Assembly: GCA_903944345.1 (NCBI GenBank)
Contig: CAJARJ010000018.1
Location: 45,933 to 109,932 of the forward strand
Length of the DNA: 64,000 nt
Source: Candidatus Omnitrophota bacterium
Lineage (GTDB): Bacteria; Omnitrophota; Gorgyraeia; Zapsychrales; Fredricksoniimonadaceae
Direction: 5' to 3'
The notes beneath the pieces were generated by a model, which did no database searches, had not been told where the DNA came from, and saw only the letters and a program-made list of their open reading frames with translations. The position numbers and the translations under genes were made by a program. Every line of letters begins with the position of its first letter. Position 1 is the first letter of the stretch. Positions 26,714 to 63,926 of this stretch are shown here, one piece after another.

Positions 26714-26716
26714 CTC

Positions 26717-28857: not shown

Positions 28858-28870
28858 GAATAGCTCCTTG

Positions 28871-30604
28871 TTATTGACGAGAAACTGCAGTGAACTTGCA
28901 AACGTCAAAGCACTGCCCGCAGCTGATACACTTTACGGCATCGATCGTATACTTGTCCTGCCGGCTTCCGGAAATCGCATCCGCCGGGCAAACCCGGGCG
29001 CACATGCCACAGCCGGTGCATTTCTCCCGGGTGATCCGGTAAGAAACCAGGCTGGAACACTTGCCCGCAGGGCACTTGTGATCGATAACGTGCGCGCGAT
29101 ATTCGGACATGAAATACTTCAACGTCGACAAAACAGGATTGGGAGCTGTCTGCCCCAACCCGCACAAGGATGCTTTCTGCATGGCCTGGGCGATCTGTGA
29201 AAGACGGGCGAGATCCTCTTCCTCCGCCTTGCCGTGAGAAATCTTTTTAAGAATAGCCAGCATCTGGGTGCCTCCCACGCGGCAAGGAGCGCATTTCCCG
29301 CAAGACTCATCCACACAGAAGCCAAGATAAAACTTGGAAATATCCACCGCGCAATCGTTCTCGTCGAGTACAATCATGCCGCCGGAGCCCATGATAGACC
29401 CCAGTTTCTGGAGGCTTTCATAGCCCACCGGCGTGTCAAAAAACTGTTCAGGAATAACGCCGCCAGAAGGCCCCCCGGTTTGTATGGCCTTGATGGCGCG
29501 ATTGTCCAGAACCCCGCCGCCGATCTCGAACACGATGTCCCTTAAAGAAATGCCCATCGGAACCTCAACCAGGCCGGAATTGCGTACCTTGCCGGTCAGC
29601 GCGAAAACCTTGGTCCCGGTCGAACCCTCTACCCCGATCTTTCCGAAAGCTTCCCCGCCCTTGCAAAGAATATAGGAAACATTCGCCAGAGTCTCGACGT
29701 TGTTGATAACCGTCGGATTGCCCCACAATCCCTTGACCGAGGGAAAAGGCGGACGCGGACGCGGATAACCCCGTAAACCCTCGACGGAAGCAATAAGGGC
29801 CGTTTCTTCTCCGCACACAAAAGCGCCGGCTCCCAGACGGATTTCAATGTCAAAACTGAAAGAAGAGCCGAGGATATTTTTCCCCAGCAGTCCCCTGGAA
29901 TAACAAATATCAATCCCCTTCTGGATGCGCTCGACAGCCAGAGGATATTCGGCACGAATGTAGAAAAAACCCTTGGTGGCACCGATCGCAATCGCCCCGA
30001 TCATCATGCCTTCGATAACAGAATGCGGATCCCCTTCAAGAACCGAACGGTCCATGTATGCCCCGGGGTCGCCTTCGTCACCGTTACAGATGATGTATTT
30101 CTCGTTCCCCTGGACACCCCGGGTGATGTTCCACTTCATCCAGGTCGGGAAGCCCGCGCCACCACGTCCGCGTAAACCCGACTTCTTCATTTCCTCAACA
30201 ACTTTCTCCGGCCCCAATTCAAGCGCCCGGGCCAGCCCCTGATAGCCGTCATGGGCTATGTAATCTTCAAGGCTCTCCGGATCTATAACACCGCAATTGC
30301 GCAAAACAATTCGCATTTGACCAACGGAACCCTCACGGGCGATACCAGCGACTTGCTCGCCCTTAAGCAGGGTTTTCTCAATAATCTCGGGAATATGCTT
30401 CTGTTCAAGATTGACGTAAGTAAACCCTTCCGGCAAAACCTTGAGCGCTATCCCGCGGTTGTAAACCCCGATATCCGCCGCCATAAGCGTCTGAACTTCA
30501 GAGGACAACCCGCGATCACGCAGCTGACTGTTTAAGGACACCAGAAATTCCCGGGTCTCTTTCTTCAATTTTCCGTTTGTGTCCTGAATAAGAACTCTTT
30601 TCAT
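28871..30604 (-). CDS. hndC: NAD(P)-binding flavoprotein subunit of the hydrogenase (HndC/HydB, NuoF-like with extra Fe-S domains)
   Basis: GLRGRGGAGFPTWMKW FMN/NADH site, NuoF 4Fe-4S motif, and C-terminal 2x[4Fe-4S] ferredoxin CxxCxxCxxxCP motifs. Confidence 0.9.
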   Translation of the reverse strand: MKRVLIQDTNGKLKKETREFLVSLNSQLRDRGLSSEVQTLMAADIGVYNRGIALKVLPEGFTYVNLEQKHIPEIIEKTLLKGEQVAGIAREGSVGQMRIVLRNCGVIDPESLEDYIAHDGYQGLARALELGPEKVVEEMKKSGLRGRGGAGFPTWMKWNITRGVQGNEKYIICNGDEGDPGAYMDRSVLEGDPHSVIEGMMIGAIAIGATKGFFYIRAEYPLAVERIQKGIDICYSRGLLGKNILGSSFSFDIEIRLGAGAFVCGEETALIASVEGLRGYPRPRPPFPSVKGLWGNPTVINNVETLANVSYILCKGGEAFGKIGVEGSTGTKVFALTGKVRNSGLVEVPMGISLRDIVFEIGGGVLDNRAIKAIQTGGPSGGVIPEQFFDTPVGYESLQKLGSIMGSGGMIVLDENDCAVDISKFYLGFCVDESCGKCAPCRVGGTQMLAILKKISHGKAEEEDLARLSQIAQAMQKASLCGLGQTAPNPVLSTLKYFMSEYRAHVIDHKCPAGKCSSLVSYRITREKCTGCGMCARVCPADAISGSRQDKYTIDAVKCISCGQCFDVCKFTAVSRQ

Positions 30605-34189: not shown

Positions 34190-36331
34190 TCAAGGAAGCG
34201 CTTTTTTACCGCAACACCAACGATCTTGCCGGATAAAGGCCGTCATAAGCCCCAATTGCAGTAACGCACAAAACACCAGCGTGTCCGAACTCCCCCACAA
34301 AGGAACAAGCACAACCCCTCCCAAAACAAGCCCCAAAACCGATCCAAGAACATCTGCGGCATACAATTTTCCCGGCACAGCTCTCGAAGAAACCGCGACA
34401 GCAAATTGCCCCCCGCTGACAGCCCCTGCGCAAAACGAAAGAAGAAAAAGCCCGGACAGCGAAAACCAGCCAGCTCCGCAAACCGCCAGAAACGGCAAAA
34501 CAGCCGCTCCCGTAAACGACACCGCTGAAGCCAAGGCCAACATCTTCCACGACACCAGACTTTTTCGGTTCTCCGCCAGCCAGGCACCGGCACAAACACC
34601 TGCCAGAAAAACAGCCGTTATCAACCCGAACCAGGAATAGACATACCCGAACAATGCCTGAAAGAGAATCAACACCGACGACTTGATAATCATCAGTTGA
34701 AAACCCCCGGCTGTTGCCGTTACCAAGGGAAGTCTGAACCCGGACTTCAATCCGGGAAAAAATACAAAAAGAACCAGACACCACAACAGCAGCAAACCGT
34801 GCTCGGCCATCTGCATAAAGCGGGCAAACAAAGAATTAAAATGTGTCGACCAGAAAGACAACGAAGAGGCAAAAAGTACAGGACGAAGATCCTGATTAAT
34901 TTCTCCGGGGACAGCAAGCATTCGCTCCAATCCCCCCAGACGCAGACGGTCAAAACGCTCATCCCAGTATCCAGGCTTGACCCAGGATGTTTCAAGACCA
35001 CGCTCCCGCAGCCTTCTTTCAAGTACCCGAGGATCCAGGCTAACAGTTCCAGGCGAGCGCACCCCCAGAAACAAGGTTCTAGCCCCCGGAAGGAATCTGA
35101 CTTCTGGAAAAACCGCCTTCAAAGTGGCAAACAAAGACCGCAGAACTCGACGGCATTCCTCATTGATATAGTTTTCGGCTGAAGTCATGGTCAAGGCCAA
35201 AACTCCCCCCTCAGCCAGAGCCAGAGCGGCCTCTTCAAAGAATTCCCTGGTGTAGAAACGATTCTGCAAAAGCGTTAAAGGATCACCGGCATCCACAATA
35301 ATCACATCATACAATCCCCGGACTCGCTTCAGGTAAGCCCGGCCGTCCGTACGGAAGACCCGGAGACGAGGATTTTGTAAAACTTGCCTAACCAAAGGCA
35401 TTTCACGGGCCAGCAAAGCCACAGTTTGAATATCCATCTCGGTACAGTCAACAGCCATACCTGGATGCTTTAACGCTTCCCGTTCTCTTCCCGCCGCCAG
35501 CGTCCCGCCAAGAATAAGCAGCCGTTTTGGATCGGGATGAGCAAGCAAAGCATAATGCACGATCTCTTCCGCAGAGGCCGCATCTCCTGCCGAAGCAGAA
35601 AACCGGCCATCTTCAAAGAAACTCAAACTGCCATTACGCTCCAAAAGAAGGCTGCGACCATAAACCGTGTCTTTTTCTGCAACGATTCTAAAGCCTTTCC
35701 AGGAAGCTGCTCGAATAATAAAAGCTGTTTTTTCTCCAAGGCCAGCCAGAAAAAAGAACAACATCGCACCGCCAAGCGCAATTTTAAAAACCAGGACTCC
35801 CTCGCCTTTAAAATAAATAATCAAAGCAGGAAGACAGACCAATACCACAATATCCCAGCTGCGCATAAAGGGAAAGAAAAGAAACGTCGCCCCCACTCCG
35901 GCAAGAAAAAAACCCAGCGCTTCCTGCGCATACAAAGACATGACGCGCCCTTTAGCCTCTCTGGTCAAGGCTGAGAAAATTGCACCAAAAACAATGCTGG
36001 CGGGCAATACCAAAAAGAACGCAACCAAAACACTGATCAGTGGATCCGGGATCTGTCCAGGCACAAGCCCAAGACCCAAACGCACTGCAGAGGCCGCCAG
36101 CGCTATCAGCGGCGCCAGAACAGACACCAGCCCAAAAAGCAATGAAGCGGAACTTTTTAACCAGATACTGCCGCAAGCTATCCCCGCCATCCAGCCAGCA
36201 AGGCACAGCATATACACCAACTCATTGCCGCCGAAAGCGGCCATAAGTTCCCGCAAAACAAACAGCTGCAACAGGCATGAACAAAACCCCAGACAGAAAG
36301 CTTGTATCAACATCGCAGGGATCCTCATCAA
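34190..36331 (-). CDS. Spermidine-synthase-like (PABS domain) protein fused between N- and C-terminal polytopic membrane domains
   Basis: 713 aa. Central domain has an aminopropyltransferase-like fold (RLLILGGTLAAG..., VIIVDAGDPLTLLQNRFYTREFF). The Gly-rich dcSAM motif is degenerate (no GGGDG Asp). Confidence 0.55.
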   Translation of the reverse strand: MMRIPAMLIQAFCLGFCSCLLQLFVLRELMAAFGGNELVYMLCLAGWMAGIACGSIWLKSSASLLFGLVSVLAPLIALAASAVRLGLGLVPGQIPDPLISVLVAFFLVLPASIVFGAIFSALTREAKGRVMSLYAQEALGFFLAGVGATFLFFPFMRSWDIVVLVCLPALIIYFKGEGVLVFKIALGGAMLFFFLAGLGEKTAFIIRAASWKGFRIVAEKDTVYGRSLLLERNGSLSFFEDGRFSASAGDAASAEEIVHYALLAHPDPKRLLILGGTLAAGREREALKHPGMAVDCTEMDIQTVALLAREMPLVRQVLQNPRLRVFRTDGRAYLKRVRGLYDVIIVDAGDPLTLLQNRFYTREFFEEAALALAEGGVLALTMTSAENYINEECRRVLRSLFATLKAVFPEVRFLPGARTLFLGVRSPGTVSLDPRVLERRLRERGLETSWVKPGYWDERFDRLRLGGLERMLAVPGEINQDLRPVLFASSLSFWSTHFNSLFARFMQMAEHGLLLLWCLVLFVFFPGLKSGFRLPLVTATAGGFQLMIIKSSVLILFQALFGYVYSWFGLITAVFLAGVCAGAWLAENRKSLVSWKMLALASAVSFTGAAVLPFLAVCGAGWFSLSGLFLLSFCAGAVSGGQFAVAVSSRAVPGKLYAADVLGSVLGLVLGGVVLVPLWGSSDTLVFCALLQLGLMTAFIRQDRWCCGKKALP

Positions 36332-36349
36332 TAGCGGTCAAACACATCC

Positions 36350-36389
36350 GTAAAAACAAAGAGCGCAGGCTATAAATCTGCCTGCGCTC
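36350..36389 (-). terminator. Rho-independent terminator downstream of the TM-helix protein gene
   Basis: GAGCGCAGGC-tataaatct-GCCTGCGCTC is a perfect 10-bp stem, followed on the minus strand by TTTGTTTTT. Confidence 0.55.
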
Positions 36390-36411
36390 TTTAAACAAAT
36401 CATTCTAAGGT

Positions 36412-37092
36412 TTACTTGCCAATATTCTGCTTATTATAAAAATCCCAAAGAATCTTGGCGGCCAGATCTTTACCACCCAAACCAAAAGCAAGCCCCAGCG
36501 CAAGACAAAAAGCCGCAAAAAAGATCTGAAACGTCGTGCTGACAAAAAATGTAGAAATTCTCAACTGCTCAAATGTCATGACCGTTGTAAACAACAGAAT
36601 CGCTATCTTGGCAATCGAACCCAGCAACTCGGCACGCGAAACGTCAATATTTGAAGCTGCAGCCTTGATAATACTGTAAATAAGATTGGCAAAAAACATA
36701 CCGATCAAAGCCACAAAAACCGCGGCAATAACATTCGGAATAAACCCGGTGACTCTTTCCAGAAGGTGCGCCGCGACAACCAGCCCCATCGAATCAACCA
36801 CGACAGTAAACACCAGCAGCATCATCGCCCAATACACGAGGCCAGCCAGCAAAGAAGACGCCGAGAGCATCACTCCGCCCTTGGTGAGCATTGCAGAAAA
36901 CCCGATCTTGTCGGAAAAAGAATTAAACTTGACCTGATCAAGTAGTTTCTGTGCAAAACCGCTGAAAACTTTGGCAATAATCCAACCGAAAAGAAGGATC
37001 AGAAGCGCGCCAAATAGCTGGGGAACAAAAGCCCCAAGTTTGTTGAGCATCGTTACAATCGGCTCGATAAAAAGAATATCAATCCCCGCCAT
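36412..37092 (-). CDS. Small polytopic membrane protein (conserved TM-helix repeat, MscS-N-terminal-like)
   Basis: 226 aa made of about 5 hydrophobic helices with internal repeats. No catalytic motif. Confidence 0.4.
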   Translation of the reverse strand: MAGIDILFIEPIVTMLNKLGAFVPQLFGALLILLFGWIIAKVFSGFAQKLLDQVKFNSFSDKIGFSAMLTKGGVMLSASSLLAGLVYWAMMLLVFTVVVDSMGLVVAAHLLERVTGFIPNVIAAVFVALIGMFFANLIYSIIKAAASNIDVSRAELLGSIAKIAILLFTTVMTFEQLRISTFFVSTTFQIFFAAFCLALGLAFGLGGKDLAAKILWDFYNKQNIGK

Positions 37093-37249
37093 ATTTTCTC
37101 CTTTATTTAGAATTTTTCAACGCAAGTTGATTACACTCTACATGAATTTGTAAGTTATGAAAATAATTTTTCATCTTTTTTAACTCGTTATCCTATAGAC
37201 AGATCGAGTCAAAATTATACCCGCAGAAGGCCCCGGCAGGCCGGAGCCA

Positions 37250-39079
37250 TCAATAGGGTGTCTTGAGTCGCCACCATTCGGAGAAGTCCGGAAGTAGCGG
37301 TCGAAAAATGGAGTTAACCAGCCGCGAATTTTTCCGTGCAATCAACTGGTTACCAGCAAGCAGTGCCGCCCTGACCCGGGAGGAGTTGACAATATCCGGC
37401 GTAACACCCTGACCATAAAACATATCCGGGGTACCTGCACCTTGCGCACGAGCCAGAATGAAACCGGAAGAAAGATTCTGCAAAAAATCCCGCAACATTT
37501 CCCTGGCAACGGCCTCGCCGCCTCTGATCTGCATAGAACTTGTTTGTCCGGTCAACATGTTGGTGTCGGTCCGGGTTATGATATCAACACCCGTGTAAAG
37601 TTTTCGAAACAATGCCAGCGCCCGGGGATTATCATCCTCAAGCGCGGAAAAGAATGGCCGAATATCCCCAAAACCGGCAGCAAACAAGGTGTTATAGAGA
37701 ATATCCCATGTCCGAGTATCTTTGCCTGGCTCCTCCTGCCGGGGGATCTGCTCAAGCCCGGGAACATCCATAACCAGAAAGCCTTCGGCCGAAAGCCGCG
37801 CCCGCGCCATGGCATAAAACTCACGCGAATAAAGGCGGCTAAGGTTGTAATCGCTTGGAGCCGGAAAATCCAGATAAATGGCATCAAAGAACTCGCGTGA
37901 CTGGCGTACATAATAAAAAGCATCGTCAATAACCACCTGCACCCGGGGATCCTCAAAAGCCCCTTGGGTCAAAGAGCCCGGCCCGGAAGCGGAACGGAAC
38001 AAGTCAACCACCTTCCTGTCGATCTCAACTAAAATGATCTTGCGGACGGAAGAATACTTGAGCAATTCCCGAATCAGAAGGCCGTCACCGCCCCCCAGAA
38101 CAAGAACAGACTCCGGAACACGAACCGAGATTGCCATAGGAACATGCGCAAAGAATTCATGGTAAAATTTCTCAACATCAGAAAGAAACTGAAAATCATG
38201 CCCAAGATACAAAGCTAACCCGTGCGGACGAACCTTCCTGCCAGCTTTGCCGTTACTATAAATATCCAGCAAGTCATCCGGATAACCGGCGGCCGAGCGA
38301 ATACTCACCAAATCAATAGACTGATACGGACTGCGAACCCGCTGCACTTGCGCCAGAAAGGCACTCTCATCAGGAAGGGCATAAAAGCGGCGCAAGAAAT
38401 ACTGTTCAAATCTTCCGGCGCCGGCAAGCGTCAAAAAAATCAGAATCGCTGCCAGAGCAGACCAAAGTAGCTGCCCCGCCCCCCTGACCGGTTTGACCCA
38501 CCACAAAACAACGGCAGCCATAAGATTAACGACAGCAATTAATCCGGCAATCTGCAATAACCCGAACCTAGGCAACAAAAACAGCGGGAAAATCAATCCT
38601 GCGGACAGCGAGCCCAGATAATCCATGCCCAGAACCCGAACCAGAAGATTTCTGCCAGGAACCGCCTCCACAGCCATATCCAGAAGAAGAGGCAATTCGA
38701 TCCCCGCCAAAAAACCGACGGCAGACGAAAGCACAAGCGCGCTGAAAAAAAACAGGACGTCCGCAGCAATAACCTGATCCCCGGACAAAAAGGACAAAGC
38801 GCCCGACTGGGCTGCATGCAGAAGAAGAACAGATCCTCCTCCCACCAGGCTCAAAACAATTTCCACCCGAAATAGCCTGAGTTCCAGCGGAGCGTTTTTG
38901 AAAAATCTTCCGCCTGACCAGGCCCCTGCCCCCATGCTCCCGACAAAAACCCCCACCGCCAGACTCACCCAAACCAGCTGGTTAGCCGTAAAAACCGCAA
39001 CCGTCTGGGCAAGCACCAGCTCATAAACAAGCGCACACGCCGCCAGGACAAACGACAAAAGATATATAACAAACATCAT
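37250..39079 (-). CDS. Membrane-fused spermidine-synthase-like aminopropyltransferase (N-terminal about 7-TM domain + PABS domain + C-terminal soluble domain)
   Basis: VLVLGGGDGLLIRELLKY (dcSAM-binding GGGDG), VEID, and IYLDFPAPSDYNLSRLYSREFY (the DSSDP-equivalent). Translationally coupled to speH (ATGA overlap). Confidence 0.65.
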   Translation of the reverse strand: MMFVIYLLSFVLAACALVYELVLAQTVAVFTANQLVWVSLAVGVFVGSMGAGAWSGGRFFKNAPLELRLFRVEIVLSLVGGGSVLLLHAAQSGALSFLSGDQVIAADVLFFFSALVLSSAVGFLAGIELPLLLDMAVEAVPGRNLLVRVLGMDYLGSLSAGLIFPLFLLPRFGLLQIAGLIAVVNLMAAVVLWWVKPVRGAGQLLWSALAAILIFLTLAGAGRFEQYFLRRFYALPDESAFLAQVQRVRSPYQSIDLVSIRSAAGYPDDLLDIYSNGKAGRKVRPHGLALYLGHDFQFLSDVEKFYHEFFAHVPMAISVRVPESVLVLGGGDGLLIRELLKYSSVRKIILVEIDRKVVDLFRSASGPGSLTQGAFEDPRVQVVIDDAFYYVRQSREFFDAIYLDFPAPSDYNLSRLYSREFYAMARARLSAEGFLVMDVPGLEQIPRQEEPGKDTRTWDILYNTLFAAGFGDIRPFFSALEDDNPRALALFRKLYTGVDIITRTDTNMLTGQTSSMQIRGGEAVAREMLRDFLQNLSSGFILARAQGAGTPDMFYGQGVTPDIVNSSRVRAALLAGNQLIARKNSRLVNSIFRPLLPDFSEWWRLKTPY

Positions 39080-39435
39080 TCGTCAAAGCCCCTGGACATC
39101 ACACTAACCTCTGCTTTACGGGCCAAAAGCCCCTGCTTAAGAAAATCAATCGCCCTCTCGGGAAACATGGTTCCGCAGGTCAAAACATCAAAAGCCGCAT
39201 AACCGTCCTGGGGCCATGTATGAATAGAGAAATGTGATTCAGCAATAAAAATCATCGCACTGACACCCTGCGGCTCAAACTGATGGAAATGGGATCCAAG
39301 AATAGTGGCGCCGCTGTCACGGGCGGCCTGCAGAAAAAGAGGACGCAAAACTTCAACCCTGGCCAGGGGCTCCGGATCACAACCGGTAAACTCGACAAGA
39401 TAGTGTCTGCCAAATTCATGTTTTCTGGATTTCAT
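39076..39435 (-). CDS. speH: S-adenosylmethionine decarboxylase proenzyme, class 1b (SpeH)
   Basis: 119 aa with the FIAESHFSIHTWPQDGYAAFDVLTCG self-processing site (ES/H). Confidence 0.8.
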   Translation of the reverse strand: MKSRKHEFGRHYLVEFTGCDPEPLARVEVLRPLFLQAARDSGATILGSHFHQFEPQGVSAMIFIAESHFSIHTWPQDGYAAFDVLTCGTMFPERAIDFLKQGLLARKAEVSVMSRGFDE

Positions 39436-40244
39436 AACGCCTCTTCATGAAGATATAAACGAACACAGACCTCCTGGATTCGCCCGGACCAAGCCAGCCC
39501 GGCCAACGTCAGAAGCAGCAGCAGTGCCGCGCCACGCAAATACACTCTCGCCTTAACCCCGAACTCAGGTCGCCAAACCAGAACCAGAAAAAGCGCCCCC
39601 GCCGCATTGCACGTTGCGACCGCCATCAGAGAAGGCACAAGTCCGGATAAAGGATAAAGACAGAAAACATATAACAAAGTTCCGGCAAAAGCCCCGAGAT
39701 AATCAAAAGCGATCAGCCGGTTACGATCGGACTTTAAATCACTTGCGCCCAATGCAAGAAGCAGCGGCAACTCAAACCCGGTCAGAAAACCAATCAAAAC
39801 AACAAGCATGTGCGCCCAAAACAAAAGAAATCCGGATGGAAAATTCAACGCATCCAGAAGAAAAAGACCCGGAACAGCCGAAACACCAAACAAAATCAGC
39901 AATGTTTCAACCTTAAACAGAAGCCGCCAGGGTCTTTTGACAACATAACGTTCAGCCGCAAAAGCCCCTACACCCATAAAACACATATAGAGACCGATTG
40001 TCACGCTGTAACGCAGAACGGTATTGGCAAAAAACGCGGAAAGAACCTGGGCCAGCAACAACTCGTAAGCCATACTGCATAACGCCAGAACAAACTTGAG
40101 AAAAAGCAATGGCCGGAGCCGTCCTGCGGTTAAACCTGCAGAATCGACTCCGGCCTTATATGGCGTCTGCCGGAAAATCAAGCTTTCTCCTGAATCACCC
40201 GCATCAGCTGCCGGGCCGCTTCTTCCGGACCCTTTCTCTCCCAA
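39432..40244 (-). CDS. Polytopic membrane protein paralogous to the N-terminal TM domain of the SpeE-like fusions
   Basis: YELLLAQVLSAFFANTVLRYSVTIGLYMCFMGVGAF parallels the 609-aa protein's YELVLAQTVAVFTANQLVWVSLAVGVFVGSMGAGAW. 4-nt overlap with speH. Confidence 0.5.
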   Translation of the reverse strand: MGEKGSGRSGPAADAGDSGESLIFRQTPYKAGVDSAGLTAGRLRPLLFLKFVLALCSMAYELLLAQVLSAFFANTVLRYSVTIGLYMCFMGVGAFAAERYVVKRPWRLLFKVETLLILFGVSAVPGLFLLDALNFPSGFLLFWAHMLVVLIGFLTGFELPLLLALGASDLKSDRNRLIAFDYLGAFAGTLLYVFCLYPLSGLVPSLMAVATCNAAGALFLVLVWRPEFGVKARVYLRGAALLLLLTLAGLAWSGRIQEVCVRLYLHEEAL

Positions 40245-49652: not shown

Positions 49653-51188
49653 TCAGACCGCTCCGGCATTCCCTGTTACAATATATTCGACCGGATTGTA
49701 ACTGTCCGTGAAAACTGGACTCCCTTCCAGACTATAATCTTGCGGCGGCACCCGGGTAGCAAGCAATGCCTGAAGGCCGCCGGGGGGTTCTATGCGGAGA
49801 AAATCATCATAAGTTCCCATGCGCATACCAGCCACAATAATAATATTCTGCAAATCCCCGGGATTCTGTCGATTGGTGGCGTAAACATCAACTCGCCCGA
49901 AAACCTCAGACAGAGTTCGGGTTATGGCGCGAAAGAATCGCGCTCTGTCTCCTTCAATGGCACTAATAATATTCATCATGTAAATACCATCCGGAGTCAA
50001 TCTCTGGCGTACCAGATCAAAAAACTCTTTTGTGACCAGATGAAACGGAACATTGTGCTTGCCATGGAAAACATCTCCAAAAACAAGATCATACTGGCCG
50101 TTATCTGAACGCAAATAGCGCCGCGCATCTTCTGCAGCAATCTTCATATGCGGATAGTCCCCGGTACGAAAAAAAATCTTGCCTGCTTCGATCACCTGCG
50201 GATCAATCTCGCAGACCTCCACTTGGGCACCGGGATAAGCCCGGCTCAACGCCTGCGGCATGGTAAAAGCGCCTCCACCAAGAAAAAGTGCCCTTTGCAT
50301 CCGCGGACAATAAAGCCGACTCAATTCCCAGTACCGGTTATACACCAGCGGACTTTCGGGCGAATGCTCGAAGCGCGCCCCCGCTGTAGAATTATCCGTA
50401 TTAATTGTCGTCACAAAATCTCCATTAGCCAGTTCCGGCCCCCGGAACACAACTATGCGGTGAAAGAATGTGATCTTGTGAAAGAGAATATGCCACGGCA
50501 TTGGCGGATTTTTCCTGGCAACCCATCCTGCCAGGAGCAAGGCAAGAAATATAACCGCCACAGGCACCGCCAGGTTCAGTGGTTTTCTAAGAGCGACTCC
50601 ATAAACCGCTGCTGCCATGCACGCCAGGACAATCCCGCTTCCCAAAAAGATCGTCCACAAATCAAAACGTGGAATAAGCAGAAAGCCGGTGGCAAAAGTC
50701 CCGGCGACACTCCCCAGCATGGAAAGCGTACCCACTATCCCGGATGATATTCCAACATGCCGATCCGCGGACAATAAACTGACCAGGCGCACACAAAAAG
50801 GAGGCACCGCACCGAGAAGAAAGCCAGGCAAAGCAAAAAACATACCTGCCGCCACAGCAGGACCCCAAACAGCACTGGTTCCAGACAAAAAAAGATCAGC
50901 AGAAAGATGCAAAAAAGGAACTATCAGAACAAAAACAGCCGCCAACCCAAGAATATGCCCCAGCAAAACAGGGGTGGGCTTGCGGTCAACCAGCCATCCA
51001 CCGTAACAATAACCTGCACTCATCGCAGTCAGAATGACTCCGATCAGTCCGGTCCAGGTATAGAGACTATTGCCAAAAACAGGAGCCAGAATGCGGTTAC
51101 CCGTCAACTCAATGACCATAACAATCGCCCCAGAGAAAAAGGCAATCACAGACAATAAAAGAGCTTCCGTCCAGGCTGAACTTTTCAT
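49653..51188 (-). CDS. Membrane-fused spermidine-synthase-like protein (third paralog; N-terminal about 7-TM + PABS-like domain)
   Basis: ALFLGGGAFTMP...VEVCEID...YDLVFGDVF...HLVTKEFF is a diverged aminopropyltransferase-like domain following a polytopic TM domain. Confidence 0.55.
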   Translation of the reverse strand: MKSSAWTEALLLSVIAFFSGAIVMVIELTGNRILAPVFGNSLYTWTGLIGVILTAMSAGYCYGGWLVDRKPTPVLLGHILGLAAVFVLIVPFLHLSADLFLSGTSAVWGPAVAAGMFFALPGFLLGAVPPFCVRLVSLLSADRHVGISSGIVGTLSMLGSVAGTFATGFLLIPRFDLWTIFLGSGIVLACMAAAVYGVALRKPLNLAVPVAVIFLALLLAGWVARKNPPMPWHILFHKITFFHRIVVFRGPELANGDFVTTINTDNSTAGARFEHSPESPLVYNRYWELSRLYCPRMQRALFLGGGAFTMPQALSRAYPGAQVEVCEIDPQVIEAGKIFFRTGDYPHMKIAAEDARRYLRSDNGQYDLVFGDVFHGKHNVPFHLVTKEFFDLVRQRLTPDGIYMMNIISAIEGDRARFFRAITRTLSEVFGRVDVYATNRQNPGDLQNIIIVAGMRMGTYDDFLRIEPPGGLQALLATRVPPQDYSLEGSPVFTDSYNPVEYIVTGNAGAV

Positions 51189-56254: not shown

Positions 56255-56596
56255 TCAACCGATGGACTGCGGCCCTTCTTCACCTGTTCGTATGCGGATA
56301 CAACGCTGCAGCTCTGTCACAAAGATTTTGCCGTCACCGATCTTTCCGGTTCGCGCCCCCTTGATGATAGCGGCAATCGCGCGATCAACAAAGGGCTCAT
56401 TAACAGCAATATCCACGCGAATCTTGCGCAAAAGATTCCCTGTTTCCTTGACCCCCCGATAAAATTCGTCAACCCCCAACTGACGGCCGTGCCCCAGCGC
56501 TTCGGAAACAGTAATAAGGTTGATCTCGGCAGCATACAACTCGCGTTTGACTTCTTCCAGACGATGCGGCTGAATAATAGCAGTGACAAGTTTCAT
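56255..56596 (-). CDS. glnK: Nitrogen regulatory protein P-II (GlnK-like) with an atypical T-loop
   Basis: 113 aa. B- and C-loop motifs conserved (TGKIGDGKIFV, RIRTGEEG). T-loop reads RQLGVDEFYRGVKETGNLL, so Tyr46 is present but Tyr51 is replaced by Thr. Confidence 0.85.
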   Translation of the reverse strand: MKLVTAIIQPHRLEEVKRELYAAEINLITVSEALGHGRQLGVDEFYRGVKETGNLLRKIRVDIAVNEPFVDRAIAAIIKGARTGKIGDGKIFVTELQRCIRIRTGEEGPQSIG

Positions 56597-56610: not shown

Positions 56611-57849
56611 TTATTCCAGCATGGTGTAAGCCCGTTCATAATGCTGGGTAATGTCCAGCCCCATGATCTCTTCTTCAGCGCTGACCCGAAGGCCAAGCCA
56701 TTTATCCACCACAACAGCAATCACAAAAGTAACTGCAGCACAATAGGCCACCGTGACCAGCGCTGCAACAAATTCTGTGCGCAAAAAAACCGGGTTGCCT
56801 GCCAGAAGCCCATCCGTTCCGGCCGCGTTAACCGAGACCGTACCAAAAATACCAGTAGCAACCATTCCCCAGAATCCGCCGATGCCATGCACTCCGAACG
56901 CGTCCAGGGAATCATCATAGCCCAGCTTCTGCTTTATGACACTGACCGCAAAAAAACTTAACCCGCCAGCCACCAGTCCGATGCAAATAGCCGCCATGGG
57001 TGCGACAAAGCCGCAGGCGGGGGTAATGGCCACCAGCCCGGCGACAACACCGGAAACCGTGCCGAACATAGTAGGTTTACCCGTCACGAGCCATTCAACC
57101 GCCGCCCAACTGCAGGCGGCAGCTGCCGCCGAAAGATTGGTGGTTACAAACGCGTTGACCGCGACACCATTGGCCGCCAGCGCGGAGCCGGCGTTAAACC
57201 CGAGCCAGCCAAACCACAAAAGCCCGCCGCCCAGAACAACAAGCGGAAGATTATGAAGTGTCGGACGGGTCAATCCCTGACGCTTGCCCAGAACGAGTGC
57301 CGTTACCAGTCCGGCTACGCCGCAATTGATCTCGACAACACAGCCACCGGCGAAATCCAGGGCTCCCAGCCCGCGCAGCCAGCCGTCCGGAGACCATACC
57401 ATATGCGCAACAGGGATATATACAGATGTCACCCACAATGCTACAAAAACCAGAAAAGAAGAAAATTTGATACGCTCGACCAGTGATCCGATCACAACAG
57501 CCGGTGTTATGACCGCAAACATCGCCTGGAAGATCATGAACGCGGCATGAGGAATCGTCGAGGAATAGTCCGGATTAGGTGCCGCACCCACTCCCCGCAG
57601 CCCAACCCACTCCAGGCTTCCGATAAAACCGTTACCATGACCAAACGCCAGCGAATAGCCATACAGCGCCCACAAAATCAGCACCATGCCCAGACAGGCA
57701 AAACACTTCATCAAAATGGAAAGGATGTTCTTGCGGCGAACCATGCCCCCGTAAAAGAAAGCCAGTGCCGGCGTCATAAGCATGACCAGACCGGCGGAGA
57801 TCATAACCCAGGCCGTGTCCCCGGCGTTAATTCCCTGTTCAGCGCCCAT
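56611..57849 (-). CDS. amtB: Ammonium transporter AmtB
   Basis: 412 aa with 11 TM helices. Amt/MEP signatures (DFAGGCVVEINCGVAGL, twin-His region). Confidence 0.9.
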   Translation of the reverse strand: MGAEQGINAGDTAWVMISAGLVMLMTPALAFFYGGMVRRKNILSILMKCFACLGMVLILWALYGYSLAFGHGNGFIGSLEWVGLRGVGAAPNPDYSSTIPHAAFMIFQAMFAVITPAVVIGSLVERIKFSSFLVFVALWVTSVYIPVAHMVWSPDGWLRGLGALDFAGGCVVEINCGVAGLVTALVLGKRQGLTRPTLHNLPLVVLGGGLLWFGWLGFNAGSALAANGVAVNAFVTTNLSAAAAACSWAAVEWLVTGKPTMFGTVSGVVAGLVAITPACGFVAPMAAICIGLVAGGLSFFAVSVIKQKLGYDDSLDAFGVHGIGGFWGMVATGIFGTVSVNAAGTDGLLAGNPVFLRTEFVAALVTVAYCAAVTFVIAVVVDKWLGLRVSAEEEIMGLDITQHYERAYTMLE

Positions 57850-58232: not shown

Positions 58233-60776
58233 ATGAAAAAACAGCTTCAACAAAGATCGTTCTCTTTCCGGATGCTCTGCGGCTGGCTCAGCCTGAATCT
58301 TGTTATCGCCGCGATCATCCCGTCCAATGCTTTTGCACAAGGGGCATACTTACCCGCTCCCGGATCCATGCTCCTGACCAGCCCGGCGTTCACCCCCGTT
58401 ATCATGCAGGGCATAAAAGTCCATGAACAAAACCCCCTTTTATTAGATTTCATAATCGATAACGGACAGACGAAGTTCCAGGCCGACAGTGCTGATTTCA
58501 GGTCTGAAGCCCAGAAAATAATCAAATATTTCCTGGCCGCGCTAACGATCAAAGAAGAAGACCTGTGGGTAAATCTGTCTCCCTACGAAAAAGACCGGAT
58601 GATTCCTGCGGAATTAGGCAAGACCGATCTGGGCCGGGACATGCTGGCGCAGGACTATGTGCTTAAGCAATTAACCGCTTCCCTTATTTATCCCGAGAAA
58701 GATCTCGGAAGAAAATTCTGGAACAAAGTGTACGCCCGGGCACAGGAACAATTCGGCACAACAGATATCCCGATAGATACTTTCAATAAAATCTGGATCG
58801 TGGCAGAGAAAGCCAAAGTCCTTGAGCGCAACAATACAGCATATATTGCAGGTGCCCGTCTGAAAGTGATGCTGGAACAAGACTATGTCGCCGAGCAGCA
58901 CAGGCACGATGCCACACCTTCCGATACCGCCCTCGAACCATCCGGCACTCCCGCCAGCAGGATCATGTCTGCGTCCACCCCGGATGAAACCGGCGCGTTT
59001 GAATTGGCCCGGGACATCATCCGTGAAATTATTGTTCCCGAAATCGAAAAAGAAGTCAACGAAGGCAAAAACTTCGCCCCCCTGCGCCAGATATTCTATT
59101 CCATGATCCTGGCAACCTGGTACAAGCTGGCACTAAAAGACGCTTTGTTAAATCAGGTTTACAGCAACCAGGGAAAGACCAGCGGCGTATCGTCAAATGA
59201 TCCAGGGGCAACAGAAAAAATTTACAACCAGTATCTGGAAGCCTTCAAAAAAGGCGTTTTCAACTATATAAAGGTTGAATCCGAAGGGGACGATAAAAAC
59301 CCTTTACCCAGGAAATACTTTTCAGGCGGCGAAGATTGGGCAATGCTGCCGCGCATCCTTGAACGAATCGAAACCGAACGCTTCTTTGGTGCAGACGACT
59401 TGAGAAGCTCCGCAGGAAGAAGCCTGGCCCTGGTCAAGACACAAGTCGCACCGCGACATGCCTATCTTGAACCAATGCCCCCAGAAAAATACACCCTTTC
59501 AGCAACAATAAATCCGATGCGGCCGGCTTACACTGGCAAAATGCTGCAAACCAACCATTCTCCGACAAACGAAAAACTCCCAAGGAACACAATAGTAATC
59601 GGCACCGGACGATCCACCAGCTACCGCCCCAGTCAATTTACCGAACAAATCTTCATTAATACCGAAGATTCAAAAAAAACGCCCGCAGCTCTTCTATACA
59701 AAAGCGCAGACGATTTCACATTGAGCACTACGGGTGCCAATGTCATTGTTATGGCTGACGCAATGCTGGGAAGACCCGATGAAGGCCCCATTCTGTTAGG
59801 CCTGCCTGTTATCGTTGCCACCACACTCACAGAAACCCTGGATCCACAACAACTTGCAGCCTTTATTCGTCAGACCAGCGACGCGAACGACGCTTTCGTT
59901 GCTTCGACCGGATCCCTGCTCACCCGATATGAATCCTTGCTGGCCTCTTATGCGGACAAATTAATGCCCGAGCATATTCACCAGCTGGCGGATTCATTGC
60001 GCCTATCTCCCGCCTTTCTGGAATCAGCAGATACTGTCAAAAAATCTCTCGGCCTTCAGTCTCTCGAGGTAGAAATTGAAGCCGGCCCCATTCTTGGAGA
60101 CATTATCGACGCATTTCTGAAAAGATCCATTATAGTCCAAACGTTAAAAAACCATAAAATCCATATCACTGCGGTCAAGGCTGCTCGCGCCGAACGCAAG
60201 GATCCTTCCCTGAAAATTCCACTGCCCACGGATGGAATTGTCAATCTCATGTTTAGCTATCGTACCAAGACCAATCTCTCTACTGATGCCAATGAACCAA
60301 TAATCCCGAGAAACATTGATTTTTCTCTTCTTGTATACCCCTCAACCAACGACATCCAACTCCCGATATACGACAAAAATATATCTATCCAATTCGAAGG
60401 ATCCCGGTTTAGTCTTTTCTATAACTATGATTCACTCATTCATTACCCCATTACGCTTGTAACCGGTGAATTGATCAACGGCACTCTCAAATTGTTCCAT
60501 CCCTCACAGGATCCTGATTCCCCTGTCGATATCCTGGTACAATATACTCCTCCGCGAACCAATCCTCCGGTTGTCCACACATCGGCCTCGACAGAGCCTG
60601 CAACCGGTGGTATCGATCTGGACGCACGGAATATGTCTCTGGATATATCCAAGGACGGTAACGGAACAGCCCTACAGATCGACCCGGCCATGCTTGCCGA
60701 ATTCCAGAAAGACAGTTTTACCGGCGTGGAGGGAATCATCCTGGAAATAACTCCGCTGTTAATTAGTGCCGATTAG
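58233..60776 (+). CDS. Large secreted protein, paralog A (shared N- and C-terminal domains of unknown function)
   Basis: Signal peptide MKKQLQQRSFSFRMLCGWLSLNLVIAAIIPSNAFA (start refined from 58146). The N-terminal about 330 aa are about 70% identical to the N-terminus of the convergent gene 60759..63926. The C-terminal GGIDLDA...ITPL tail is also shared. Confidence 0.55.
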   Translation: MKKQLQQRSFSFRMLCGWLSLNLVIAAIIPSNAFAQGAYLPAPGSMLLTSPAFTPVIMQGIKVHEQNPLLLDFIIDNGQTKFQADSADFRSEAQKIIKYFLAALTIKEEDLWVNLSPYEKDRMIPAELGKTDLGRDMLAQDYVLKQLTASLIYPEKDLGRKFWNKVYARAQEQFGTTDIPIDTFNKIWIVAEKAKVLERNNTAYIAGARLKVMLEQDYVAEQHRHDATPSDTALEPSGTPASRIMSASTPDETGAFELARDIIREIIVPEIEKEVNEGKNFAPLRQIFYSMILATWYKLALKDALLNQVYSNQGKTSGVSSNDPGATEKIYNQYLEAFKKGVFNYIKVESEGDDKNPLPRKYFSGGEDWAMLPRILERIETERFFGADDLRSSAGRSLALVKTQVAPRHAYLEPMPPEKYTLSATINPMRPAYTGKMLQTNHSPTNEKLPRNTIVIGTGRSTSYRPSQFTEQIFINTEDSKKTPAALLYKSADDFTLSTTGANVIVMADAMLGRPDEGPILLGLPVIVATTLTETLDPQQLAAFIRQTSDANDAFVASTGSLLTRYESLLASYADKLMPEHIHQLADSLRLSPAFLESADTVKKSLGLQSLEVEIEAGPILGDIIDAFLKRSIIVQTLKNHKIHITAVKAARAERKDPSLKIPLPTDGIVNLMFSYRTKTNLSTDANEPIIPRNIDFSLLVYPSTNDIQLPIYDKNISIQFEGSRFSLFYNYDSLIHYPITLVTGELINGTLKLFHPSQDPDSPVDILVQYTPPRTNPPVVHTSASTEPATGGIDLDARNMSLDISKDGNGTALQIDPAMLAEFQKDSFTGVEGIILEITPLLISAD

Positions 60777-63700
60777 GGGTGTTATTCGGAGAATAACCGG
60801 TGAAATGCCGCTGAAATTACCACTCTGTAACCGCTCCAACACCTGCTCATCAAAAGCAAACATTGCTGCATCTCCGGAAGCCGTCAACGCTCCGGAAGCA
60901 TCCAGATCGATACCACCAACATCCTGATTGGGCGCACGTTCGCTGCTGTCTGCTCCACTGTCGGCATCCTGCAAACTTTGCTCAAGTCCCAACGAGCGAA
61001 TATCCTTTATGACTGCGTCGATAGATACCGGCGCTCCAATCATCCCGCTGACCGCCCGCGCAATTGAAGGCAGATCCCCCCCATGCAAGCGGATCATCTG
61101 CGAATACATAACCCTGAAAATATTCTTGATCGCAGACAAATCAAACGCTTCACGCCAGCTCAACTGCGGATGGACTTTTTTCTCGGCAGCCACGGCCTCG
61201 GCCGCTCTTTGCAAGGATGCCTGACGCATGGCAGTTGTTTCCTCAACCGTCAAAAGATGATCGCCGTTGGTCTGATCTGTCTCATAAGATGAGACCGTTA
61301 CTCCACCGGCATTGGCCAGAGTGTCCGGAATGACATTAATCCCCTTCTGCTCAAGAATCCTTTCAGCCTCTTCCGTGATCGGCCCGTTAGCCCCCTCAAA
61401 GACCCATGGAGCAACAACAAGCTCTGCCTCCCGTGCCGTAATCGCTTCCTGAATAGCTGCAGGAACAAGAATGTCAACCCTGGCTCCGAAAACAGCATCC
61501 GCCACAGCCTGGGGACTATCCAGAGCAGCTGTCACCCCCTGTAAAAAAATCCGCCCCTGAGTCCAGGCATCACGCAACGTTCCAGCCTCCCTGATCGCCA
61601 CCAGAATATCCTGAAGCTCATTCTCGGTCCAGACACCGTCACCTTCTTTCACCAGCGTGATCCCCAAATCATTGATCACTTTAAGGCTTGCTCCTTCTTT
61701 GACCAGCCTCAAAGCAGTAAAGTAGCCGACATTCCCGAAGCCATTGACGGCTGCGGTCTTGCCTTGAAGATCTCCGATAAAGAATTTGATCACATCCACA
61801 ACACCAAATCCTGTAGCTTCGGCACGTCCGGCCACGCCGTAAACATCCGGATCCTTTCCGGTAAAAACACCCAACCAGGGAACCGGAATACTATTGTCGC
61901 GCCAAAACCTGTAGGCAACATCCAGATACGCAGTTCTGGTCGGGTCGGAATCCTCCTCGATGGATCCCAGCGCTTGATACAGATCCACATTGTATTCACG
62001 AATAATATTTGTCTCTCTTGTCAGATAGCGCAAATATTCATCCTCGTACCAACCAAGAATCTGCGAATCCGTTCTCATATCCGGAGCAGGAATATCTTTA
62101 TCGGGACCGATTGTCCCTGAACGGGCTAAAGCCCAGGCATGCGCCCTTGCGATCCTTGCCTTGTTGGCCAGCGGAAATTTCTTCCAGTCAACCTTGCCAT
62201 CCGCCCCCGCTTCATAATCCTCCAGCGTCCAGACTCTACGTCCACTGGAGTTCAGCTTTCTGGTGATCTTGCCGATAAAAATACCCCCTTTCCCGCCGCC
62301 CAGCGCCAAGCGACTGCCGGAAACTTTCAGCGTCATCCCCAGAGACAAAGCCAGAACATCTCCCTCAATCCATTTCCCTACAAAACTCCGCACTTCTTCT
62401 TCCGAAGGCTCCAGAGCAACAAACTTCTCCCACTGATCAACAAAATCCGTATCATTCATAAGATCGCTTGCAAGAACCCAACGAATGCCTCCCTTGGCCG
62501 GCCCCAGAATTGTGTTGTTTCTCACTCGCTCGAAATAGATATCAGCCTCCTGCTTCTCCCCGGACGGAGAAATCTGCGGAATCGTTGCCCATGACTTTGT
62601 TACTGTCCGTGGCTTAAGCAAAGACAGTACCAGTTGCGGATTAAGCTCCTCTTTAAAACGGTCAGATATCCCCCGAACGCGATTGCGCATTTTGGTCCAG
62701 TAAGGATTCTCCAGACGCTTAACAGCCTTCCCTGCAGATGTTAACGTAGCCGCCTCATCCTCCATTCTTCCCGAGACCGTGACCACCAGCGTCTTGCCGA
62801 CAGCATCCTTTACATCAGTCCGGGCCGCATTATCGACCGTTTCGGGAACCGGATTATCCCCGCCCGAAAAATATTTACGGGGAATCACCTCACCCATCGG
62901 GTTTATATCGTCCTTGATAAAATTAAAAACCCCCTGTCTGTAAGCGTCTACATATTTATTCCAGATTGCTTCCGGAGCTAAATCCACGCCGCTATCTTTG
63001 ACCCAGGCCCCTTCCAGTCCTCCGGTTCTGGCACGGTCGGCATAAGCCCGGGTCAACAGCGATTGACGAAGATTACGCTTGTACCAGGTTGCCAGAATAA
63101 CCGCCTGATGGATCTGACGAAGCCCGGCAAAATTCCTACCTTCGTTCACGTCTTTCTCGATCTCGGGAATAATAATATCCCTGAGCACCTGTTGGGATAT
63201 ATCGGGTGATGAGCTTTCTTGCAAAGTCAATACCCCCGCCGCACCACTGGCATATTGAGCTGCCAGATAATCTGTTTCCAGCATGACCTTAAGATGCATG
63301 TCCGTAATCAGGGCTGTCATCCGATTCCCATCCTGAGGATTCCTGTGGGCATATACAGCCGCGCGATCAGTTACAATCCAGACCTTATTCAACGTATCGA
63401 CAGGAATTTCTGTCGTGCCAAACTCGTTCTGCGCACGCTCGTACACTCTGTCCCAGAACGCTTTGCCCAGTGACTTCTCCGGAGTAATCATGGATGCAGT
63501 AAGCTGTTTAAGCACATAGTCCTGGGCCAGAAGATCGCGCCCCAGCTCGGTTCTTCCCATCTCTTCGGACAGCATCCGGTCTTTTTCATAAGGAGAAAGA
63601 TTGACCCACTGATTCTTTTCCGGAGTCGTCAGCGAAGCCAGAAAGTACCTGACCAATCTTTCGGATTCCCCGGCTATTTCTTTATCATCAGCGCTACCGG

Positions 63701-63926
63701 GCAAAAGACCGGTATGACCGGTATCTACAATAAAATCAAACAAAAGGGGGTTATCGGCATAAACAGCGACCCCCTGCAGACTCACCGGAACAAACGCCGC
63801 ACTGGGCTCGACCATTGCTCCCGGCTCCGGCAAAATCAGGTTTTGAGCCAGGACCGCATCAGGGCCAAGAACCGTGCTCAACAAAAACGCCACCAAAACA
63901 ATGACTGCATTAACCCGCTTCAACAT
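60759..63926 (-). CDS. Large secreted protein, paralog B, with an embedded Glu/Leu/Phe/Val-dehydrogenase (GDH-like) domain
   Basis: Signal peptide MLKRVNAVIVLVAFLLSTVLGPDAVLA. aa about 470-880 carry GDH motifs: GPAKGGIR, LALGGGKGG (catalytic Lys), DIPAPDMRTD, AEATGFGVV, NGFGNVGYF (Rossmann), VIPDTLANAGGVTVSSYE. N- and C-terminal domains are shared with paralog A. Confidence 0.65.
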   Translation of the reverse strand: MLKRVNAVIVLVAFLLSTVLGPDAVLAQNLILPEPGAMVEPSAAFVPVSLQGVAVYADNPLLFDFIVDTGHTGLLPGSADDKEIAGESERLVRYFLASLTTPEKNQWVNLSPYEKDRMLSEEMGRTELGRDLLAQDYVLKQLTASMITPEKSLGKAFWDRVYERAQNEFGTTEIPVDTLNKVWIVTDRAAVYAHRNPQDGNRMTALITDMHLKVMLETDYLAAQYASGAAGVLTLQESSSPDISQQVLRDIIIPEIEKDVNEGRNFAGLRQIHQAVILATWYKRNLRQSLLTRAYADRARTGGLEGAWVKDSGVDLAPEAIWNKYVDAYRQGVFNFIKDDINPMGEVIPRKYFSGGDNPVPETVDNAARTDVKDAVGKTLVVTVSGRMEDEAATLTSAGKAVKRLENPYWTKMRNRVRGISDRFKEELNPQLVLSLLKPRTVTKSWATIPQISPSGEKQEADIYFERVRNNTILGPAKGGIRWVLASDLMNDTDFVDQWEKFVALEPSEEEVRSFVGKWIEGDVLALSLGMTLKVSGSRLALGGGKGGIFIGKITRKLNSSGRRVWTLEDYEAGADGKVDWKKFPLANKARIARAHAWALARSGTIGPDKDIPAPDMRTDSQILGWYEDEYLRYLTRETNIIREYNVDLYQALGSIEEDSDPTRTAYLDVAYRFWRDNSIPVPWLGVFTGKDPDVYGVAGRAEATGFGVVDVIKFFIGDLQGKTAAVNGFGNVGYFTALRLVKEGASLKVINDLGITLVKEGDGVWTENELQDILVAIREAGTLRDAWTQGRIFLQGVTAALDSPQAVADAVFGARVDILVPAAIQEAITAREAELVVAPWVFEGANGPITEEAERILEQKGINVIPDTLANAGGVTVSSYETDQTNGDHLLTVEETTAMRQASLQRAAEAVAAEKKVHPQLSWREAFDLSAIKNIFRVMYSQMIRLHGGDLPSIARAVSGMIGAPVSIDAVIKDIRSLGLEQSLQDADSGADSSERAPNQDVGGIDLDASGALTASGDAAMFAFDEQVLERLQSGNFSGISPVILRITPLIGTN

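Follow-up and report, generated by a model that had tools for sequence, protein, structure and literature searches.

The locus described here raises the question of where a glutamate dehydrogenase (GDH) acts that is contained in a protein apparently built for export. The locus belongs to Candidatus Omnitrophota, bacteria which are widespread, almost uncultured and suspected of living as parasites or predators on other microbes. The window, i.e., the whole stretch of 64,000 nucleotides that was analysed (contig CAJARJ010000018.1 of assembly GCA_903944345.1, positions 45,933 to 109,932), contains two convergent genes, here named A and B, of which B encodes the GDH. A preliminary description of the DNA regarded them as neighbouring paralogs, one of which has an unusual domain inserted. 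Instead, they were found to be two members of a phylum-wide family of thousands of proteins, in which a conserved N-terminal module (N-module) and a conserved C-terminal tail, together called the bracket, enclose very different cargos.

Coordinates of A, B and the other features are collected in Table 1. The convergent arrangement with an 18-nt overlap of the 3' ends, as first described, agreed with the coordinates of the open reading frames (ORFs). A common N-terminal domain and a common C-terminal tail had also been reported, and BLASTP aligned A with B at both ends. The N-terminal alignment extended over about 360 amino acids (aa) with 48% identity (E 4e-106), and the C-terminal alignment over 53 aa with 38% identity (E 2e-06). 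The identity of about 70% originally given for the N-terminal region applies to a core of 80 aa from WVNLSPYE on (72.5%), but not to the whole region (48%). Neither are the proteins giant, as they had been called, with 847 aa in A and 1055 aa in B. The middle region of A is indeed distinct from that of B, with a size of about 420 aa (residues 367-790) and not the 500 aa that had been supposed. The start of A is ambiguous, as public gene calls use not only 58233 but also the in-frame starts 58146 (876 aa) and 58272 (834 aa).

The N-module profile was searched against 1.84 billion cluster representatives (50% identity). At least 8,426 clusters carry the module, 6,857 of them at E<=1e-30, and it always lies within residues ~1-400 of proteins whose lengths range from 420 to 4,969 aa. 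Residues 1-364 of B used as a query gave more than 1,000 matches at 45-54% identity, none of which had a Pfam domain on the N-module region. This search returned neither B itself nor anything longer than about 1.75 times the query, an apparent length filter which hides the long fusion members. The matches with a named source were mostly metagenome-assembled genomes (MAGs) of Candidatus Omnitrophota. In species-representative genomes at least 584 family loci were found, nearly all of them in Omnitrophota and several per MAG. A few family-bearing MAGs are labelled Planctomycetales, Bacteroidales or Elusimicrobia (loci L012, L014, L017, L039, L054, L071 and others); these labels probably reflect mislabelled or contaminated bins rather than a real spread. 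The inspection of other genomes for the same cassette with other inserts, which the preliminary description had proposed, thus gave thousands of members with many cargos.

The order of parts within the family is fixed: a Sec-type signal peptide, the N-module of about 330 aa, a variable cargo and a tail of 55-75 aa. The N-module starts with LxLPxPGxMV at the predicted mature N-terminus and ends with a nearly invariant PRKYFSGG, while the tail has the consensus GGIDLNxxNMxLDVxKDGKGIEMKFDPAMVAEFQRGDFSGVVPVIIxITPI. PRKYFSGG and the tail are separated by a median of 822 residues (177 to 4,520). Among the 159 family proteins with at least 1000 aa, 155 had the tail motif, and so did all 14 of the longest members; shorter database entries of the family were mostly truncated. 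Both A and B have the complete layout, with the N-module after the signal peptide and a GGIDL...I.P tail at the extreme C-terminus. The N-module is predicted to have a novel fold, a mixed alpha/beta structure with long helices, within which LxLPxPGxMV was modelled confidently. The tail of B was modelled as strand-helix-strand, with a predicted local distance difference test score (pLDDT) of 65-86. The shared ends matched no family in Pfam, NCBIfam (searched with A and B), PADLOC or PHROGs, and the N-module profile against PDB sequences gave nothing beyond a chance match to Huntingtin (E 0.008). These blank results bear out the impression that the termini are not those of a described family. 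No description of the bracket was found in the literature on Omnitrophota signal peptides, fusions and protein families, or under the strings WVNLSPYE, PRKYFSGG and GGIDLN.

As judged from sequence comparison, the N-module and the tail are inherited together as a unit. Their identities correlate over 30,355 pairs (Spearman 0.60), and both the length and the type of cargo differ between close relatives by N-module. The N-module of A is 66-71% identical to those of proteins of 917-1590 aa with other cargos from other genomes. That of B is 56-65% identical to members of other genomes, with 56-60% to carriers of phosphoglucomutase (PGM) and of receiver domains (REC). A recent tandem duplication was considered as the origin of the pair and rejected, the N-modules of A and B sharing only ~49%. 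Since each of the two is nearer to members from other genomes, A and B are by their sequences anciently diverged paralogs within an Omnitrophota-specific, greatly expanded family of modular carriers.

Cargo domains were collected from precomputed and new Pfam scans of the region between both ends. Amino-acid metabolism was represented by GDH, alanine dehydrogenase (AlaDH) and PALP enzymes. Cargos of central carbon metabolism comprised PGM, transaldolase, aldose epimerase, hexokinase, PGI, PFK, PGK, iPGM and enolase, and further PEPCK, isocitrate lyase (ICL), malate synthase, transketolase/PDH-E1 and PPDK-type domains. Nucleotides and sugar nucleotides were represented by adenylate kinase, NAPRTase and UDP-glucose pyrophosphorylase (UGPase), and signalling by REC, GGDEF, HATPase_c and sigma-54 AAA+ domains. 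In addition, LpxC, histidine phosphatase, HAD, GNAT, many methyltransferases, radical SAM, ACP and DnaJ were found, as well as a recombinase, ribosomal protein S9, TPR and ankyrin. Many family members have no recognisable cargo domain. One of them is A, whose cargo gave no Pfam match at E<=0.1 and no PDB sequence match, and was covered by one ortholog only (P0356, 84% identity). An extracytoplasmic redox function specific to GDH, as initially suggested, was therefore posed at the wrong level: the bracket, not GDH, needs explaining, because it carries dozens of unrelated cytoplasm-type cargos.

A short motif, D-x-A-M, accompanies the cargos. Among 250 complete members it was counted 563 times in linkers and cargos, compared to 24.7 +/- 5.6 in shuffles (~23-fold), with concentrations 0-60 residues after PRKYFSGG and 5-25 residues before GGIDL. 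It also occurs inside the tail (FDPAM), and some long members contain 8-12 repeats along the chain. The motif may serve in processing or docking, or be a degenerate tail-like repeat.

In the cargo of B, both Pfam models that had been named for a check of the GDH were matched, ELFV_dehydrog (PF00208) at residues 697-940 (3.3e-38, cut-off 23.4 bits) and ELFV_dehydrog_N (PF02812) at residues 579-631 (3e-15, 56.5 bits with a cut-off of 25.3 bits), the latter in pieces. The GDH motifs GPAKGGIR, MTLK, GGGKGG, DIPAPD, GFGNVG and ANAGGV are present, and the first four align to solved GDHs. The top PDB sequence matches (phmmer) were archaeal and bacterial hexameric GDHs, the best being 1v9l at 6.5e-36. 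A full-length AlphaFold2 model of B had a mean pLDDT of 84.4, with low values at 357-393 in the linker and values above 90 from ~400 to ~990. Foldseek matched this model to whole GDH chains with E ~1e-30 (1v9l 2.7e-30) at ~27% identity, and the TM-scores to solved GDHs, normalised to the target, were 0.85-0.90. In the model, then, the two-domain GDH fold of the ELFV superfamily is complete. The early claim of a complete GDH-like domain stands as regards motifs, fold and Pfam matches, but it overlooked that domain I is broken by three insertions of ~32, 28 and 45 residues relative to Bacillus subtilis RocG. The substrate-binding half of the enzyme contains ~105-125 extra residues in total and is complete, yet aligns only in blocks. 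The insertions fall in the GDH half that forms the hexamer. Compared to the hexameric ELFV GDHs of Pyrobaculum islandicum (1v9l), Thermococcus profundus (1euz) and B. subtilis (RocG, 3k92), B has the same two-domain fold and the same catalytic and cofactor motifs, and differs in its low identity, the domain-I insertions, extensions of 440 aa at the N-terminus and 65 aa at the C-terminus, and the signal peptide in front.

The exact B protein occurred on 10 contigs from several samples and sources, and a full-length ortholog at 58% identity and 16 more GDH fusions were found. Residues were surveyed in 18 GDH fusions with 31-60% identity to B. The Lys of GxxKGGIR was kept in 16 of them, and the Lys of MTLK, the Lys of GGxKG and the Asp of PAPD in all 18, whilst the Rossmann GxGxxG and NAGGV motifs were largely kept. 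Loss of catalytic residues upon proper alignment, raised beforehand as a possible objection, was thus not observed. Judged by these residues, the GDH of B most likely still catalyses its reaction, and its clade appears to be selected for catalysis. The enlarged spacings between the motifs were common to all 18 fusions, and for this reason we regard the GDH of B as a distinct, old clade with insertions on the strength of its sequences, encountered here solely within the bracket. It should not be named an ordinary GdhA, since it scored far under the cut-offs of the NCBIfam GdhA/GdhB equivalogs NF040817 (156.8 of 750 bits), NF041398 (151.7 of 620 bits) and NF006929 (89.7 of 536 bits).

A and B each have a single hydrophobic segment, which is N-terminal and followed by an A-x-A site, NAFA|QG in A and AVLA|QN in B. 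The signal-peptide statistics are based on our own rule-based checks of 323 members with complete N-termini. The n-region was net positive in 96% of these (mean +2.6), the mean Kyte-Doolittle (KD) hydropathy of the h-region exceeded 1.8 in 98%, and the 25 residues after the h-region had a net charge of 0 or below in 82% (mean -0.13). At the cleavage site, position -1 was A, G or S and position -3 was A, V or S, the next residue being most often Q, and LxLPxPGxMV starts a few residues past this predicted site. Lipobox and twin-arginine motifs were essentially absent among the same members. No further transmembrane (TM)-like segment was found in 276 of 350 family proteins. The same N-termini were found on members with radical SAM, PFK, enolase, hexokinase, DnaJ and sigma-54 AAA+ cargos. 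By these rules the N-termini of A, B and their relatives behave as signal peptides for Sec and signal peptidase I, and A and B are probably exported. The classical signal peptide noted at the outset on A and B accordingly follows the rules for n-, h- and c-regions, as do those of the 323 relatives.

Known export systems offer partial likenesses. In TpsA proteins (FHA, CdiA), as in the family, differing passengers share a conserved N-proximal domain of ~250-330 aa directly behind a Sec signal peptide, and in CdiA the short VENN motif bounds the polymorphic region in a manner comparable to D-x-A-M. The family N-module, however, is predicted as alpha/beta with long helices and not as a beta-helix, and has no Pfam match to the TPS domain (Haemagg_act). 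The family also has an extra conserved C-tail and housekeeping-type enzymes as payloads, in place of adhesins or toxins, and no TpsB-like partner was seen beside family genes at the loci examined. Cargo of the type IX secretion system (T9SS) combines an N-terminal Sec signal with a conserved C-terminal element on diverse cargos, and the family tail could likewise be a second-step sorting signal. The T9SS element is a beta-sandwich of 80-100 aa, whereas the family tail is a strand-helix-strand of ~55 aa; the family differs further in its additional N-module and its phylum. Searches of A and B with the NCBIfam sorting-domain models (TIGR04183/TIGR04131 type) gave no match at E<=0.1. For the beta-barrel translocator of autotransporters (type V) there was no Pfam match, and neither model predicts a beta-barrel. 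In polymorphic toxin and effector systems (CdiA, Rhs, MafB) a variable C-terminal toxin is paired with an adjacent immunity gene, a pairing that was not encountered in the family, where the search for immunity genes was non-systematic. The variable part of the family proteins is internal, consists of housekeeping-type enzymes and is followed by the conserved tail. Every testable feature that defines TpsA, T9SS cargo or polymorphic effectors was absent from the family.

Signal-peptide proteins of Omnitrophota carrying cytoplasm-type enzymes are already known, and unexplained. In West-Roberts et al. (2023, bioRxiv 10.1101/2023.11.21.568195) the TIM, PGI, FBPase, PGM/PMM, aldolase and PPDK domains of Archaeovorin are predicted as extracellular, and a localisation error is suspected. 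A 2026 preprint (bioRxiv 10.64898/2026.06.07.730766) describes "multi-enzyme metabolic cluster" proteins of Omnitrophota which bear signal peptides or TM segments and have the same Pfam repertoire, and places the metabolic content of a 147-kAA giant with both signal peptide and TM on the periplasmic or extracellular face. The giants come from the same phylum as the A/B family, mostly bear a signal peptide or TM segments, and share with it PGM/PMM, PGI, hexokinase, PPDK, REC, radical SAM, HATPase_c, GNAT, HAD and methyltransferase domains. Compared by these descriptions, they have 10,000 aa or more, many TM helices, and HEAT/GT/TPR domains or dockerins. A and B, by contrast, are of ordinary size and carry a single cargo; apart from the signal peptide they lack TM segments, and Pfam showed neither HEAT nor GT nor dockerin domains in them. 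Like the giants, the A/B family consists of signal-peptide proteins of Omnitrophota with cytoplasm-type metabolic domains in the part predicted to be exported. The passages of both preprints retrieved by term search contain no description of a conserved N-module, C-tail or D-x-A-M. What is new, and apparently undescribed, is the sharply defined N/C bracket in thousands of ordinary-sized proteins.

By the standards of sequence rules the signal-peptide features could hardly be stronger, and on this basis we tentatively take, as the best-supported reading, the bracket for a common export or anchoring handle which would place active enzymes outside the cytoplasm of the producer. The data establish a family of modular carriers, its bracket with jointly inherited ends, its signal-peptide features, the fold and conserved residues of the GDH, and the clustering of the genes; that the proteins are exported, what the bracket does and where the cargos act are the steps that we infer. 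The signal peptide would take the unfolded chain through Sec across the cytoplasmic membrane, and the bracket may then be a common handle for a shared partner, such as a second-step transporter, the cell envelope or a surface lattice. Many different cytoplasm-type enzymes would thereby reach the periplasm, the surface of the cell or the zone of contact with a host or prey cell, where released host NAD(P)H, ATP and sugar phosphates could be available to ultra-small, host-dependent or predatory Omnitrophota. The D-x-A-M motifs flanking the cargos may provide a processing or docking site. Several points weigh against this reading. Almost every cargo depends on cofactors or partners found in the cytoplasm (ATP, NAD(P)H, SAM, Fe-S assembly, histidine kinases, DnaK), and a radical SAM or receiver domain exported by Sec would have no obvious way to work outside the cytoplasm. 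A partner transporter or anchor was not identified, and export is predicted from sequence rules. The position of B near amtB-glnK would fit cytoplasmic nitrogen assimilation, although the linkage is missing at three other GDH-fusion loci. The cargos' need for cytoplasmic cofactors and partners therefore keeps alive the explanations by a scaffold, by delivery to a host and by non-catalytic use. We think it quite unlikely that the bracket is a dedicated device delivering dozens of active metabolic and signalling enzymes to the contact zone, to the cytoplasm of host or prey, or to an unrecognised internal compartment. If this were true, part of the metabolism would take place outside the cell proper, and D-x-A-M would release or dock the cargos.

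An unlikely alternative, which nevertheless deserves weight, is that the proteins stay on the cytoplasmic side, where the bracket would build a membrane-associated metabolon and B would be the working GDH of the cell. Such a scaffold would suit cargos that are without exception cytoplasm-type and cofactor-dependent, and would be compatible both with selection on the GDH catalytic residues and with the position of B near amtB-glnK in its source genome. In addition, many long Omnitrophota proteins with TM segments only are read, in the 2026 preprint (bioRxiv 10.64898/2026.06.07.730766), as membrane-anchored with cytoplasmic domains. The charges on either side of the h-region, however, obey the positive-inside rule for an N-in, C-out orientation. 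Furthermore, the A-x-A site is conserved right before the conserved mature N-terminus, in most members a second TM segment, by which the cargo could return inside, is missing, and the amtB-glnK neighbourhood does not recur.

The cofactor problem would also be solved if the bracket carried the enzymes into an attached host or prey cell, in whose cytoplasm cofactors are present, and host metabolism were redirected to compounds that the nanobacterium takes up. The analogy with polymorphic effector systems, namely a conserved handle, a motif bounding a variable payload and clustered paralogs, would speak for such injected effectors, and Omnitrophota are reported to be ultra-small, host-dependent or predatory. 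Predator RNA has been reported inside dead prey cells. ICL and malate synthase occur as cargos, while the glyoxylate shunt is reported as absent from 176 complete Omnitrophota genomes. We give this explanation little credence: no translocon or injection apparatus was linked to the family, the payload is placed in the middle of the protein and not at its C-terminus, and ribosomal protein S9, ACP and DnaJ would be odd effectors.

It is very unlikely, in our view, that the exported enzyme folds are reused without catalysis, as periplasmic or surface modules that bind or sense ligands such as glutamate, sugar phosphates or nucleotides. Such reuse would sidestep the need for cofactors and would agree with the conserved substrate-binding lysines, and the domain-I insertions could alter the assembly of the GDH. 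Binding alone, however, would not need the Rossmann GxGxxG and NAGGV motifs, which are largely kept, nor does it sit well with the catalytic Lys of GGxKG and the Asp of PAPD, invariant throughout the fusions surveyed. Assembly chimeras, frameshifted gene calls or decaying pseudogenes, as which the many truncated short entries and those ending in out-of-frame-looking sequence could be taken, can be dismissed because the fusions recur in independent assemblies, as illustrated by the ten contigs with exact B, its full-length ortholog, the 16 further GDH fusions, the intact reading frames and the presence of both bracket ends in nearly all long members.

If the export reading is followed, a family of more than 8,000 clusters would put a secretion signal and a common handle on normally strictly cytoplasmic enzymes, among them most of glycolysis, GDH, adenylate kinase, receiver domains and radical SAM enzymes. 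Should these enzymes truly work outside the cytoplasm, a tiny cell would be exploiting its host in a manner not known before. Should the logic of signal peptides instead fail across the phylum, its genomes, and localisation predictions generally, would have to be read differently. The profiles of N-module and tail can be used for cataloguing the cargos of each genome, for re-analysing proteomes and for export tests with reporter fusions.

Table 1. Features of genes A and B and of their surroundings; positions refer to the window unless another locus is given.
Feature	Position	Strand	Remarks
Gene A	58233..60776	+	847 aa ORF
A signal peptide, predicted Sec	58233..58337	+	aa 1-35, ...IIPSNAFA then QG; start ambiguous
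A N-module	58338..59330	+	aa 36-366, ends PRKYFSGG; BLASTP with B
A orphan cargo and linkers	59331..60602	+	aa 367-790; D-W-A-M directly after YFSGGE
D-x-A-M in A	59334..59345	+	aa 368-371, YFSGGEDWAM
A C-terminal tail	60603..60773	+	aa 791-847, TGGIDLDARNMSLDISKDGNGTALQIDPAMLAEFQKDSFTGVEGIILEITPLLISAD
Convergent coding overlap, both stop codons inside	60759..60776	.	18 nt, from ORF coordinates
Gene B	60759..63926	-	1055 aa ORF
B signal peptide, predicted Sec	63846..63926	-	aa 1-27, MLKRVNAVIVLVAFLLSTVLGPDAVLA cut before Q; sole hydrophobic segment of B
B N-module	62859..63845	-	aa 28-356, LILPEPGAMV to PRKYFSGG
B linker, N-module to cargo	62607..62858	-	aa 357-440; variable across family
B cargo, two-domain GDH with three domain-I insertions	60957..62606	-	aa ~441-990; Pfam, PDB, model
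D-x-A-M in B	60861..60872	-	aa 1019-1022; tail only
B C-terminal tail	60762..60920	-	aa 1003-1055, GGIDLDAS...SPVILRITPLIGTN; 38% identical to A tail
Third family member	L001:4487-9745	+	1752 aa; beyond right end of window, upstream of B, same strand
amtB	56611..57849	-	adjoins A, near GDH fusion
glnK/P-II	56255..56596	-	adjoins A, near GDH fusion
Three unusually long spermidine-synthase-domain genes	within 34190..39438 and 49653..51188	-	707, 609 and 511 aa
AdoMet decarboxylase gene	~39079..39438	-	adjoins 609-aa spermidine-synthase-domain gene
[FeFe]-hydrogenase cluster	~20579..30604	-	flavodoxin- and ferredoxin-type genes upstream
NuoF-like subunit of hydrogenase cluster	28871..30604	-	
HydA-like large subunit	27097..~28857	-	
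HydF	23469..24716	-	
Two radical-SAM maturase-like genes	21926..~23437 and 20579..21589	-	hydrogenase cluster
Anaerobic ribonucleotide reductase NrdD	14410..16539	-	with radical-SAM activase-like genes and two-component system (12469..17357)

Family genes tend to stand together. Two or more of them within ~13 kb were found at 17 of 79 loci, and each GDH fusion examined was situated directly downstream of a larger gene on the same strand, which has the N-module in the three loci with DNA. In the case of B this larger gene is the third family member in Table 1. It has a signal peptide, the N-module, SATase_N and hexapeptide domains (CysE-like, 619-839), a Cys/Met-PLP domain (957-1275) and the tail GGISLDD...IIRSITPM. 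Together with a fourth member, which begins on the - strand at L001:1451, this makes four family genes within ~16 kb. Within the window, tblastn of A and B found no further copies of either and no other N-modules. The predicted products of its cytoplasmic genes (GroEL, IMPDH, hydrogenase subunits) are too short for N-module plus tail, and the same is true of every product at 12469..17357.

On the other side of the pair are amtB and glnK. A nitrogen-assimilation operon combining GDH with amtB-glnK was considered and rejected, as this neighbourhood was absent from the three other GDH-fusion loci examined; the proximity is probably coincidental.

Scans of the window for tRNA genes and Rfam families gave no matches. 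The [FeFe]-hydrogenase set is typical of a fermentative anaerobe, and its cluster also contains an aspartate ammonia-lyase-type gene. The spermidine-synthase-domain and AdoMet decarboxylase genes form an expanded polyamine set. Genes are mostly on the - strand, and the GC skew was negative in every 2-kb bin of the window (-0.06 to -0.22), which is consistent with a position on one replichore with no switch of skew inside.

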